From positions 64,001 to 128,000 of the forward strand of contig JAHPZA010000009.1 in assembly GCA_019058445.1 (NCBI GenBank): a DNA stretch of 64,000 bases, given 5' to 3'. How positions within the stretch are numbered: the stretch's first letter is position 1; each line of letters begins with the position of its first letter. This document shows, piece by piece, positions 58,434-64,000 of this stretch. This stretch comes from Promethearchaeota archaeon. Lineage in GTDB: Archaea; Asgardarchaeota; Lokiarchaeia; Sigyniarchaeales; SOKP01. Below the pieces are notes generated by a model. It saw only the letters and a list, made by a program, of their open reading frames with translations. It did no database searches and had not been told where the DNA came from. Both the position numbers and the translations under genes were made by a program.

Positions 58434-59408
58434 ATCCCCGAAAGTAGCAGTATATTAAATGATATAAATAAGGTATTCATTCCATGCAGGACCGTGCTAG
58501 AAATGGAAGCAATAATTTCTCTCTATTTATTAAATTCTAATTATGATAGAATTAAAGAAATTCCAGAGTCTCGACCTTCTAGTGATCGGCTTGTTGACAT
58601 ATTAGGTGTTAGAGATCAAAGACTTTTTGTAGATATTATAGATTATTTTATCAATCGAGCAATCCCGAAAGTAAAACCCGTAGTTATGTATGCTCGTGAA
58701 CATCATGAAAGGTATAGAATGGGAAACGTTGCTCCTTACGCAAAAACGCGAGTATGTGTTTATCTCGCACTACATAGATTAAAATTGAAATTTTTAATTA
58801 TTAAAAATTTTTTAGATAAATTCAAATCGGCGAATAACAGCTTAGAATTTGTTTCTGATGAGGAAGCGGAAGAGGATATGACTTTTCTGACCACCTTAGC
58901 CAAGGATTATTATAAAAAAAATAAAATGAATCTGAGACTCATGATTCAGAAGAGAAGAGTTTCAGAAAGAGTTCAAAAATTACTAAATGATAAAGATGCT
59001 ATCACCAGCGACAAATTATTTAAAATGGCAACATTCAAGGTATATCTTGAAAGAGCTAATATAATAAAATTTATTATGCGAGAAATCAAAGCTTCAATTT
59101 TTGTTTGTAGATTAATGTTTGCCAAAATGGACCTTCATAATCCTTTTTCTTTTACAGAAGAAACTGCTTTGGATTTAGAAGAAATTATGATTAGTAATGA
59201 CTTTATTCCTGAGTTATTACCTGCCATATCAAAAGGTTTACAGGATAATAATATATCCCAACTTGAAGATTGTATTAACGCATTTGAATTTTTTATGGAT
59301 AAGGTTTTAAATGGTATTAATAAAGCTATAGAAATAACTTCTGGGGGACAACTCCAAATTGGGTTATACGATGCGATTTATGATATTGGCAATATTTTTG
59401 CATTTTAG
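58434..59408 (+). CDS. hypothetical helical protein; start ATC 58434 (tentative), GTG 58494 or ATG 58503
   Basis: Long ORF; frame open from stop at 58398; AAGGCGAT+4 nt+ATC CCC GAA. Confidence 0.75.
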   Translation: MPESSSILNDINKVFIPCRTVLEMEAIISLYLLNSNYDRIKEIPESRPSSDRLVDILGVRDQRLFVDIIDYFINRAIPKVKPVVMYAREHHERYRMGNVAPYAKTRVCVYLALHRLKLKFLIIKNFLDKFKSANNSLEFVSDEEAEEDMTFLTTLAKDYYKKNKMNLRLMIQKRRVSERVQKLLNDKDAITSDKLFKMATFKVYLERANIIKFIMREIKASIFVCRLMFAKMDLHNPFSFTEETALDLEEIMISNDFIPELLPAISKGLQDNNISQLEDCINAFEFFMDKVLNGINKAIEITSGGQLQIGLYDAIYDIGNIFAF

Positions 59409-59509: not shown

Positions 59510-60211
59510 ATGGCTAATTATAAAGCAATTGTTAAAGATCTACAAAAAAAATACACTGATGCAACTGAGGTAGTTATCGTAAGCAAAGATGGAAAAGTCC
59601 TTTTTACAACTGATAACTGGGATGTTAATCGTGATATAAAGGGTGTATTATCCAATTGGGCAAGTGGCAATGCACAATTCGTATCTATAAATGAGATTCG
59701 GTATTCTATCCTACAGATGGAGCCAGAACGGTTTATTGCTACAAATCGTCATAAAAAGGGGCATTTGATAGGCGCAACCACACCAGATGGATCTATATGT
59801 ATTTTGGCTCATATTAAACCAAAAGCAAAAGCTTGGTATCATTCTGCCTATCCATTTGTCGCTAGAGCCGCCGCGATGATGGTAAAAGGTTCAAAATCAA
59901 AGAATTTAAAATCTAAGAAGAGTAAAAAAAGACAAAAGACCAAGAAGCAAAAAAAGGAAACAAAAGTAGTGCTAATGGATGATAAGAAGGAAAAATTGAA
60001 TACGTATGAAACCACGTATGGTGTATTAAAAGAGGAACCTCAGATTGATCCCTATCTTAAATTAGAAATTGAAAATTTTCTCCAGTGGATAAACGATCCT
60101 AATGGTTTATCATCTTATATCTCTTATTATTTAGGTCAGAATGATCATCAGAAAATTCATGCTTTGGCCATGATTTATAAAATGCTCCATAGAATATTTT
60201 CAAATGAATAA
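59510..60211 (+). CDS. Asgard profilin-domain protein with Lys-rich linker and C-terminal helical domain
   Basis: VIVSKDGKVLFTTDNWDV, INEIRYSILQMEPERFIATN..KGHL resemble Loki profilins from memory; extra ~105 aa. Confidence 0.85.
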   Translation: MANYKAIVKDLQKKYTDATEVVIVSKDGKVLFTTDNWDVNRDIKGVLSNWASGNAQFVSINEIRYSILQMEPERFIATNRHKKGHLIGATTPDGSICILAHIKPKAKAWYHSAYPFVARAAAMMVKGSKSKNLKSKKSKKRQKTKKQKKETKVVLMDDKKEKLNTYETTYGVLKEEPQIDPYLKLEIENFLQWINDPNGLSSYISYYLGQNDHQKIHALAMIYKMLHRIFSNE

Positions 60212-60216
60212 TTTGA

Positions 60217-60318
60217 TTGAATGGCATTATTAAAACTAAAGAAATAAGTTCTGGTGGACAAATACAAATCGGATTATATGATACCATATATGGTACTGGA
60301 AACATTTTTGCGTTTTAA
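60217..60318 (+). pseudogene. remnant copy of the last 34 codons of the 58434-59408 gene
   Basis: LNGIIKTKEISSGGQIQIGLYDTIYGTGNIFAF* vs LNGINKAIEITSGGQLQIGLYDAIYDIGNIFAF*; 81/102 nt identical by hand count. Confidence 0.85.
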
Positions 60319-61165: not shown

Positions 61166-61190
61166 GAATTAGAATATAATGGTGATAGAA

Positions 61191-61673
61191 ATGTCCAATA
61201 ATAAAACCCTTGATTTAAGGAATTTGAAAATTGATCAACTGGGTTATGTGTATAAAGATATTGAAAAACAAGCTAAGATTATGGAAAATATGTCAGGAGT
61301 TTCCAAATTCGTTGTATTTGATCCCGTGGATGTGAAAGTTAATTATCGTGGAGTTAATAAAACTATTAAGATGAAAGCTGGATTTGGAACCTTATATGAT
61401 GATACTCAAATTGAACTTCTTCAACCTGTAGAAGGAGAATCTATCTATAATGAATTTCTCAATCAAGGGAGAGAAGGATTTCATCATATTTTATATATAG
61501 TTGAAGATTTACAAGCAGTTATTAATAAATATAAGGAGGCGGGCGTAGAAGTTATTCAATCTGGTAAAGTTATGACCTCTTCGTATGCATATATGGGCAC
61601 TGAGGAATTTCTAGGTATAATCGTTGAATTTGCTCAAGAAGGAAGAAGGAGCAGAAGGAAAAAAAAGGAATAA
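61191..61673 (+). CDS. VOC (glyoxalase/methylmalonyl-CoA epimerase-like) family, copy 1
   Basis: QLGYVYKD, QIELLQP, EGFHHI, IVEF; GGTGAT+4 nt+ATG. Confidence 0.88.
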   Translation: MSNNKTLDLRNLKIDQLGYVYKDIEKQAKIMENMSGVSKFVVFDPVDVKVNYRGVNKTIKMKAGFGTLYDDTQIELLQPVEGESIYNEFLNQGREGFHHILYIVEDLQAVINKYKEAGVEVIQSGKVMTSSYAYMGTEEFLGIIVEFAQEGRRSRRKKKE

Positions 61674-61758: not shown

Positions 61759-62229
61759 ATGAAAAAACGATTGAATATTGATATTAGTAATTTAAAAATC
61801 GCACAGTATGGTTATGTTTTTAAGGATGTTGAGAAACAGGCCGAAATAATGGAATCTATATACGGGATTCCTAAATTTGCAGTGTTAATAGATGAAGATT
61901 ATCCCATAGAATATCGGGGAAAAGAATCAAAAATCTCAACTAAGATTGCCATAAGTCGATTTTTTAACACTCAAATTGAACTTATTGAATTAATTAAAGG
62001 AAATTGTATATATAAGGAGTTTTTAGAGGCAGGGAAGGAAGGTTTTCAGCATGTTAGCTTCTTTATCGAGAATTTAGACTCATATATTGATACATTTAAA
62101 AAAAGCGGTTTTGAAGTCATACACTACGGTCAAATAGGGAAACAAAGATTTGCTTACTTTGATACTGAAGAGACTTTTGGACTTCTTTTAGAATTTCAAG
62201 AGACTGTAAAAAGAAAAAGAAAGAAATAA
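61759..62229 (+). CDS. VOC family, copy 2
   Basis: QYGYVFKD, QIELIE, EGFQHV, AYFDT..FG..LEF. Confidence 0.88.
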   Translation: MKKRLNIDISNLKIAQYGYVFKDVEKQAEIMESIYGIPKFAVLIDEDYPIEYRGKESKISTKIAISRFFNTQIELIELIKGNCIYKEFLEAGKEGFQHVSFFIENLDSYIDTFKKSGFEVIHYGQIGKQRFAYFDTEETFGLLLEFQETVKRKRKK

Positions 62230-62301: not shown

Positions 62302-63639
62302 TTAAGATGAGATACTTAAATTTTTGAAAGCGATATATGGAAATAGCGAATTTAAAGAAAATTCACGTTCCTTAGAGATAAATTGACTATTTTTTATCAT
62401 TTCTAATACATTTCCGCTTATATTTCCTCCTTTTATTGGATACTCAATTTGACCATTTTTAATGAAATAGCCATTTCTAATTTCTGTTCCAAAAGAACCT
62501 GAAAATCTATCAGGATTTAACCAAGAACATTTTTCAATTAGATAACCATCTTTTATGCTCGTAATTATTTCTTCTTTAGCGATATCACCTGGTAAAATCT
62601 CGAGATTAGAAATGGAATTTATCACTGAACCATCATCGATTCTAATACCATTACCTGTAGATTCTGTATTTCCCATAATTGCAAACTTTTGATCATAGAG
62701 GCGATTTTTAAAAATCCCATTCTTGATAACTTCAATTAGCTTATGCGGATTTCCTTCTCCATCCCATGAATTACACCTCAATCCCCCTTCAAGTAATCCA
62801 TCATCACGTAAGCTAAAAGTATCTGAAGCAACTTTAGCATCAACATTTAGAGCAGAAATTTTCTCATGATATGCTTTTCCTAATGCATGAAATCCAATAA
62901 CTGGATTAATCGCATTTTTTAGCACATTTGGTGGAAAAATTACGATTGCTTGTCTATTTGGTTTTGGGATTTTTGCTTTTAATGTATCTACAGCAATCCT
63001 TGCCCATTTATTTACACGCCTTTCAATATTTAATTCTTCTTTTTCTTTAATATATTCAATTTCCCATGCTTCAGATAATTTGCCATTACTCTGAGCCTTC
63101 AATGCCATTTCAATATAAAAAAAGGTTTTTGATGCTTCTAAATTCAAACCAGTACTATTTTTAAGAGTTTTATTTTGAATATGAATTCTAAATCGGCTAA
63201 ATGTTGGAGTAATTTCCTTGTGTTCACTAATTTCTTCTAAAATCTTCTCACTCATATCGCTTTTAAAACCAATAGGGTCTTTTACAATGCTTTGATCTGC
63301 GGTTTTAATTGGTTTTTGAGGTTTTTGTTCTGGAAAATTATATTTTGAGCCACTATTTTCTTTTGATAATAACTGACAGATCTCAATATTTTTTTCGATT
63401 TGTGGTAAACTCAGTGAATTTCCTTTTACGATTCCAATACCCGTTTCATCCCCTTTCTGAGTTAGAATTCTAACAACGTACTCTATGTCCTTAACTTCTC
63501 TTACAGTATCAATTTTATATTTCAAGAATTCCGTTTCATAGATATCTTGTTCAACAAAAAAAATCTCGTATTCTCGAATTTTTTTTGATTTCAAACTTTT
63601 TTCAATTACCTCAATAGCTTCTACACTCACTTTTTTCAC
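62302..63639 (-). CDS. TldD/PmbA family protein, PmbA(TldE)-like (start may be GTG 63630)
   Basis: WDGEG.P, STGNG, SNL.I.PG, SGSFG, GY.IKNG.I.YPIKG..ISGN. Confidence 0.9.
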   Translation of the reverse strand: MKKVSVEAIEVIEKSLKSKKIREYEIFFVEQDIYETEFLKYKIDTVREVKDIEYVVRILTQKGDETGIGIVKGNSLSLPQIEKNIEICQLLSKENSGSKYNFPEQKPQKPIKTADQSIVKDPIGFKSDMSEKILEEISEHKEITPTFSRFRIHIQNKTLKNSTGLNLEASKTFFYIEMALKAQSNGKLSEAWEIEYIKEKEELNIERRVNKWARIAVDTLKAKIPKPNRQAIVIFPPNVLKNAINPVIGFHALGKAYHEKISALNVDAKVASDTFSLRDDGLLEGGLRCNSWDGEGNPHKLIEVIKNGIFKNRLYDQKFAIMGNTESTGNGIRIDDGSVINSISNLEILPGDIAKEEIITSIKDGYLIEKCSWLNPDRFSGSFGTEIRNGYFIKNGQIEYPIKGGNISGNVLEMIKNSQFISKEREFSLNSLFPYIAFKNLSISS

Positions 63640-64000
63640 CCCGGGCTTATTAAGGCACTTTTAGTTCTTACATAACTTCCCCCTGATGTAACAGGAACAA
63701 AATCTTCTTCTCCTTTTCCGCAGGTACCCGGACGTAACATTAATTCATCGTCACTAACAGCATCGATATTCTGTAATAGCTGTAATACTGAACCGCTTAA
63801 AGTAATAGTCTTGAGTAGTTTTGTTTTTTCCCCGTTTTCTATTAAATACCCCTTCTTAGATGAAATCTGCATTCCGCCCCCTAATACATCTTCCATTCCG
63901 AAATATCCACGGATTAGCATTACTCCATGTTGTATTTCAGAAATCATTTCTTCGATCTTATAATCACCCGGTTCAAAATAAGTATTTGTCATTCTGACGA
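63636..64000 (-). CDS. tldD: TldD family protein, C-terminal part (runs off the window)
   Basis: VRMTNTY..PG, GYLIENG, GTCGKG...VPV..GG. Confidence 0.88.
   Translation of the reverse strand, partial: VRMTNTYFEPGDYKIEEMISEIQHGVMLIRGYFGMEDVLGGGMQISSKKGYLIENGEKTKLLKTITLSGSVLQLLQNIDAVSDDELMLRPGTCGKGEEDFVPVTSGGSYVRTKSALISPG

Follow-up and report, generated by a model that had tools for sequence, protein, structure and literature searches.

Actin in Asgard archaea is thought to be regulated mainly by a few profilins and gelsolins (bioRxiv 10.1101/2025.11.30.690169). The characterised Odin and Loki profilins are single domains of 119–136 aa, close to the ~120–150 aa typical of profilins. Heimdall (6yrr) and Thor (7pbh) profilins depart from this minimal single domain by means of N-terminal extensions, which modulate function according to the account in PMC8410842. 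Besides these extensions, the literature searched presents Asgard profilins as free single domains, with no tailed or multidomain Loki profilin. The protein described here is encoded in a 64,000-nucleotide stretch of one contig of a Promethearchaeota archaeon (the window) and likewise falls outside the single-domain size: at 233 aa, it joins a profilin-like head to a 48-residue linker and a 53-residue tail (Table 1).

Table 1. Coordinates of the tailed profilin gene, its parts, its neighbours and related genes. Plain numbers are positions in the window; numbers with an L prefix are positions in other loci.
Feature	Position	Strand	Basis
Whole gene, tailed profilin	59510..60211	+	ORF list and translation; 257 homologues
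Head, residues 1–127 (N-helix, seven strands, C-helix)	59510..59890	+	AF2, Foldseek, phmmer, conservation
Linker, residues 128–175, disordered and variable	59891..60034	+	pLDDT, conservation, charge
Lys/Arg-rich tract within linker	~59885-59962	+	sequence
Three-helix tail module, residues 176–233	60035..60208	+	folded alone, pLDDT 91.6; no family match
3' end of upstream 304-aa gene (58494-59408), original duplication copy	59307..59408	+	read and aligned
Diverged copy (~77%) of 304-aa gene 3' end, after profilin	60217..60318	+	read and aligned
Arylsulfatase-like gene, 755 aa	56013-58280		
Tandem paralogous glyoxalase/VOC-like genes	61179-61673, 61759-62229	+	
TldD/PmbA-type pair	62302-63639, 63636-63992	-	
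~455-aa partner, example intact locus	L014:4608-5999	+	one of 14 loci
~455-aa partner, own genome, contig 6 (480 aa)	L115:1495-2937	+	
Longer paralogue of partner, own genome, contig 3	L116:1024-3027	-	
Other profilin-fold genes, own genome	L002:1477-2253, L003:1438-2043	+	
Other profilin-fold genes, own genome	L004:1435-1839, L006:1444-1818	-	
Profilin-TrmB fusion, own genome, contig 6 (440 aa)	L005:544-1866	-	Pfam TrmB 8.6e-15
Lokiactin paralogue beside the fusion	L018:1495-2649	-	
Free tail form, own genome, contig 10	L123:4046-4216	+	
Helicase, own genome, contig 10	L123:4271-6958	+	
DnaJ-like gene, own genome, contig 10	L123:2958-3914	-	
Larger tail fusion, 352 aa	L145:1981-3039	-	
Larger tail fusion, 728 aa	L146:91-2277	-	

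Architecture and conservation of the tailed profilin

The open reading frame runs from ATG to TAA, and the profilin motifs, lysine-rich stretch and helical C-terminal segment that the preliminary description had read in it are all present as described. Among the 5.8 billion clustered proteins searched, 257 homologues were recovered at E ≤ 1e-3. The 120 of these that were listed come from Promethearchaeota/Lokiarchaeia-type assemblies, are all annotated as 'hypothetical', measure 210–236 aa, cover 96–100% of the query and share a common end point. Alignments of 23 and 119 sequences start alike (with a conserved M-A/V-N-Y-K) and end alike, and in both the head and the tail are conserved around a variable middle, mean column conservation being 0.80 in the head, 0.76 in the tail and 0.28 in the linker. 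The family does not extend beyond the archaeal family to which the window belongs, in a Lokiarchaeum-type order: orthologues of this type of head scoring at least 200 bits occur only there, and the best head matches outside it are ordinary profilins of 118–186 aa at 36–73 bits.

The head (residues 1–127) is modelled by AlphaFold2 (AF2), with the 119-sequence alignment, at pLDDT >90 as helices 4–14, 43–52 and 109–123 plus seven strands. It has the motifs KDG, T.NW.V, I.Y.I and ER.I.TN..KGH in common with Loki profilins, and phmmer against the PDB matched it to Loki profilin-2 (5zzb, 9.7e-10) and Loki profilin-1 (5yed/5yee, 1.7e-9), with further matches to 7pbh (2.2e-7) and Odin profilin (5zza_P, 6.7e-7). 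In a Foldseek search of the PDB with the head model, the top five places went to Loki and Odin profilins (5zzb at 3e-11, 5zza_P, then 5yee/5yed), all of them structures of actin complexes; the fold is that of LokiProfilin2, OdinProfilin and LokiProfilin1 at a TM by target of 0.78–0.91 and an rmsd of 1.7–2.7 Å, chain P of 5zza giving 0.91 and 1.7 Å. Profilins of yeast, amoeba and plants rank after the Asgard ones. The Roadblock/LC7 and longin proteins of Asgard archaea (9jq8, 9jue) have the same core alpha/beta fold as profilin (PMC10933270), and the two Roadblock structures appear only from rank 34, at an rmsd of 5–6 Å. Profilins have a seven-stranded antiparallel sheet packed against N- and C-terminal helices, a three-strand motif taking the place of half the central helix; Roadblock/LC7 and longin domains have five strands and a full central helix through which they dimerise. 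The head model is of the first kind, with the three-strand motif among its seven strands. As modelled, then, the head is a genuine profilin fold, and the preliminary description's assignment of this domain to profilin is upheld against the Roadblock/longin fold that it had named as the alternative.

Within that fold, the head is short-looped like Odin profilin and is without most of the 'Loki loop'. Identity to the Odin and Loki profilins is only 21–27%, and actin binding is something that we only infer here. Pfam PF00235 gave no match in the tailed profilin at E ≤ 1; this profile is weak for the lineage, the genome's canonical 134-aa profilin reaching 24.9 bits against a cut-off of 25. Conservation of the head peaks in strand b4, the turn that follows it, b5 and b6 (0.88–0.99) and in the C-helix with its preceding loop (0.92–0.93), and stands at 0.66–0.75 elsewhere. 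In 5yee the three-strand motif is the actin-contacting part of profilin (PMC10933270). Since the best-conserved surface of the head coincides with this motif, we count it in favour of a role with actin.

The linker (residues 128–175), with a pLDDT below 30 in the AF2 model and a length of 34–61 residues across homologues, is read as a flexible tether. The preliminary description had built its functional proposal on a polybasic tract, which the protein does possess (19 K/R among the 55 residues 125–179, net +12). As a family feature the tract does not stand: the net linker charge reaches at least +8 in 5 of 119 homologues, all five of which have 74% identity or more to this protein, whereas homologues below 62% identity have values between -6 and +6 (median -1). 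Because it is limited to the closest relatives, the basic tract cannot be the family's core mechanism; the linker charge is read, from these alignments, as a recent genus-level change that may add local affinity for membranes or nucleic acid in this genus. A short basic stretch directly after the C-helix, KGSKSK, is conserved across the family.

The three-helix module beyond the tailed profilin

The tail had been described beforehand as a helical domain of its own, and the structure predictions agree: its helices (181–195, 200–210 and 213–231) have pLDDT >90 in the model of the full protein, and folded alone from a diverse alignment the tail reaches 91.6. It is thus predicted to be an independently folding three-helix domain of ~53 residues, one that is not described in the literature searched. 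Its consensus is FL.WI...GL..YI.YYL.QND...I..L..IY..L..IF, in which W, G and Y are invariant, and the alignment of residues 176–233 with 41 other sequences spans the whole module. The tail gave no Pfam match, a best E of 0.14 in a profile search of the PDB, no Foldseek match in the PDB and, in the wide search with VIA, a Z of at most 4.8, no better than noise for helical bundles; the ESM atlas searched by shape returned only the protein's own family, and an atlas search by features identified no family. Small helical bundles are hard to place by fold or sequence matching. An origin of the tail in the upstream 304-aa gene was ruled out, as BLASTP gave no alignment between them.

An HMM search with the C-terminal domain had been proposed in the preliminary description; a tail-only HMMER scan of 1.84 billion cluster representatives recovered 44 proteins, among them, besides tailed profilins, four Ras-family GTPases that carry the module (Pfam Ras 5e-11 to 2e-34). 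One fusion (P0157) has the order Ras-like GTPase, tail, gelsolin repeat and start of a profilin-like domain, and another (P0143) the order N-terminal tail, polyproline linker, profilin-like domain and zinc ribbon; larger tail fusions of 352 and 728 aa are encoded in two genomes of the window's own family. Across P0136, P0156, P0157, P0162, P0143 and these two larger fusions, the three-helix module occurs alongside Ras-like GTPase, profilin-like and gelsolin domains, zinc ribbons and linkers rich in proline. Proline-rich linkers adjoin the profilin-like domains in P0143, P0156 and P0162; polyproline in this position recalls the ligands of eukaryotic profilins, an analogy that we offer as a lead only.

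Within the window's family the tail profile is positive in all 40 genomes sampled, and it is also positive in 3 of 3 from the sister family and in four closed genomes of the order; 157 genomes from 25 other families of the phylum were all negative. Among the genomes sampled, those with the module thus all belong to the window's own order. In the window's family a genome typically carries the module three times: in a protein of ~205 aa, in the 213–236-aa type and as a free protein of ~53 aa. The genome analysed here has a second tailed profilin of 201 aa on contig 7, whose tail is 58% identical to that of the 233-aa protein. In the sister family there is only one tailed profilin, and it is more similar to the contig-7 paralogue (36%, E 6e-42) than to the 233-aa protein (29%, E 1e-27). 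The simplest history has a single fusion in the ancestor of the order and a later duplication in the window's family.

The free form matches the tail in hhalign with a probability of 99.0% (E 6e-18), in a test for which it was left out of the tail profile. It is homologous over the whole domain, and the module should therefore fold by itself. The free form (53–56 aa) is encoded immediately upstream of a ~890-aa DEAD/DUF5814 helicase in 20 of 20 genomes examined, and in 17 of 20 a 318-aa gene resembling DnaJ zinc fingers (DnaJ-CXXCXGXG-like) flanks its other side. These neighbours are not actin genes, so the module is not specific to actin, which argues that it may be a general docking unit. 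Judged by where it occurs (a paralogous tailed profilin, a free miniprotein, Ras-like GTPases and a gelsolin fusion), the tail is a mobile module.

Genomic context and other profilin-fold genes

At 14 of 24 loci the tailed profilin is directly preceded, on the same strand, by an unknown gene of 451–478 aa (the ~455-aa partner). In 12 of these 14 pairs the spacing lies between a 14-nt overlap and a 44-nt gap, the others being 73 and 263 nt, and the two genes look like an operon in several genera. Searches with the partner gave no PDB sequence match and no atlas match. In Pfam its only hit was to Sec7, below threshold in one of three members (E 0.005; 16.9 bits, the cut-off being 22), and this was dismissed as noise. 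The N-terminal ~250 residues of the partner family are found more widely, in other Asgard families, and the family includes longer paralogues of 635–720 aa. In one lineage Arf/Ras genes adjoin the tailed profilin gene.

In the window's genome this operon is broken, the partner being encoded on contig 6 and a longer paralogue on contig 3. The profilin gene here stands between two direct copies (~100 nt, ~77% identical) of the 304-aa gene's 3' end, of which the downstream one still reads as a remnant of 32 codons; the two copies share no 9-nt exact seed and were aligned by hand. The order of genes is thus the 304-aa gene, profilin, the duplicate and a 212-aa membrane gene, against a 301-aa gene, the 212-aa membrane gene and profilin in a close relative (L015). 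Since gene order differs in this way between close relatives, the profilin gene has changed place in this genus, and the downstream duplicate is a scar of that move. Comparison of the 304-aa ORF, as a conceivable shortened form, with the ~455-aa partner gave a BLASTP E of 3e-5 over 144 residues and an hhalign probability of 1.3%, and a 293-aa gene found downstream of the profilin in another lineage (L012) has no similarity to the 304-aa ORF. The wider neighbourhood in the window includes an arylsulfatase-like gene, tandem paralogous glyoxalase/VOC-like genes and, after these, a convergent TldD/PmbA-type pair.

This genome has six genes with a profilin fold. Two are canonical and short, encoding 134 and 124 aa; the 233-aa and 201-aa proteins bear the three-helix tail, a 258-aa protein has another kind of helical tail, and the sixth gene fuses profilin to a TrmB winged-helix regulator. 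This fusion follows a Lokiactin paralogue on the same strand at a distance of 323 nt, an actin gene directly precedes it in 8 of 8 genomes that have it, and it is a candidate actin-sensing transcription factor. The presence of two short canonical profilins means that the tailed forms may do something else.

Candidate functions and comparison with known systems

In the model that we favour, the head would handle Lokiactin monomers through the face formed by b4–b6 and the C-helix, as other profilins do, and the tail, on its flexible tether, would dock the head onto a common partner or onto other copies of the module. Profilin, alone or together with actin, would in this way be gathered at one site or complex, and the leading candidate for a co-worker would be the ~455-aa protein encoded immediately upstream in most genera. 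In this genus the highly basic linker would be a recent addition, perhaps lending electrostatic affinity for anionic membranes or nucleic acid. Taken as a whole, with a head that binds Lokiactin monomers and a tail that docks, the model comes just short of an even chance in our estimate. We infer the part played by actin from the predicted profilin fold, the actin-bound state of the closest structures, the conserved face, the gelsolin in the fusion network and the synteny of the TrmB paralogue with actin.

Several of the same observations also have to be set against the idea that the profilin fold was repurposed, so that the tailed clade no longer regulates actin. The ligand of the b4–b6/C-helix face would then be something other than actin, such as a small GTPase or the ~455-aa operon partner, much as Roadblock and longin domains serve GTPase signalling, and the tail would link the protein to that pathway. 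The tailed homologue of Candidatus Lokiarchaeum ossiferum (L. ossiferum; UYP46361.1, 207 aa), which is the 'B35_Pro1' of bioRxiv 10.1101/2025.11.30.690169, is well expressed, with a mean log2 intensity of 19.5 in the tables of that preprint, beside 21.7 for actin and 17.4 for the canonical B35_Pro2. In the Lokiactin co-IP reported there, B35_Pro1 was not enriched (log2FC 0.31, p 0.17), whereas B35_Pro2 was (log2FC 1.07, p 0.0018). This result speaks for repurposing, as do the coexistence of two canonical profilins in the genome, a tight operon with an unknown protein instead of actin genes, a tail common to Ras-like GTPases, the Arf/Ras neighbours in one lineage and the core fold that profilin has in common with Roadblock and longin (PMC10933270). 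A single antibody co-IP can, however, miss transient G-actin binders; the head is far closer to the actin-bound Asgard profilins than to Roadblock, its best-conserved surface is the actin-contacting three-strand motif, a paralogue from the extended clade is syntenic with actin in all eight genomes, and a gelsolin domain belongs to the same fusion network. With these points on both sides, we consider repurposing rather unlikely, if still a serious contender.

The proposal of the preliminary description, in which the polybasic tract is the key element that tethers profilin to anionic membranes or nucleic acid while the tail oligomerises, can draw on the charge of this linker, on the family-wide KGSKSK and on the PIP2 responsiveness reported for Asgard profilins (PMC8410842). 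The tract is nevertheless a genus-level novelty in the least conserved part of the protein, strongly positive in five close relatives and on median slightly negative among the more distant homologues, and we judge the proposal very unlikely. An artefact peculiar to this genome (through stop-codon loss, frameshift or chimeric assembly) might be suspected from the diverged duplication around the gene and its changed position relative to close relatives. The head-linker-tail architecture is, however, kept in 257 homologues from many samples, with at least 96% query coverage among the matches listed, in every genome of the family sampled and in closed genomes including that of L. ossiferum, whose homologue has been detected by proteomics. 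The lost stop codon that had been raised as a caveat is thereby excluded, and the chance of an artefact of any of these kinds is negligible.

In a further reading, the 53-residue module would be a homotypic or shared-partner docking domain that wires Ras-like GTPases, profilins and gelsolin-type proteins of the Lokiarchaeales into one assembly, with the free miniprotein as competitor or adaptor and the ~455-aa partner as a new actin-associated factor. We rate this as quite unlikely; if true, archaea would have arrived independently at a counterpart of the coupling of GTPases to actin assembly that formins or WASP provide in eukaryotes. At a more general level, the conservation of the tailed profilin, a homologue of which is expressed, and the presence of its module on Ras-like GTPases and a gelsolin fusion suggest an undescribed spatial or signalling control of the archaeal cytoskeleton. 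The tail may show how relatives of eukaryotes place their actin regulators. Should the head turn out not to bind actin, it would instead represent a profilin fold recruited to a new job near the root of eukaryotes. Either outcome is testable now in L. ossiferum, which is in culture and has both B35_Pro1 and the free module, and for which antibodies, co-IP and proteomics exist.

In eukaryotic actin regulators such as the villin or dematin headpiece proteins, a core that regulates actin is joined by a disordered stretch to a small, compact helical domain at the C-terminus. The likeness of the tailed profilin to them is an analogy of layout only; the tail has neither a sequence nor a fold match among solved structures (none with Foldseek, a best Z of 4.8 with VIA). 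B35_Pro1, from the same order, consists like this protein of head, linker and tail, the tail aligning over its full length; it is 29% identical to the 233-aa protein and 36% (E 6e-42) to the contig-7 tailed profilin, and is without the basic linker. The profilin passages of bioRxiv 10.1101/2025.11.30.690169, which lists B35_Pro1 as a profilin, make no mention of a tail. In the Heimdall and Thor profilins the extensions are short, N-terminal and flexible, whereas the extension in the tailed profilin is a folded C-terminal module held in common with other protein families.
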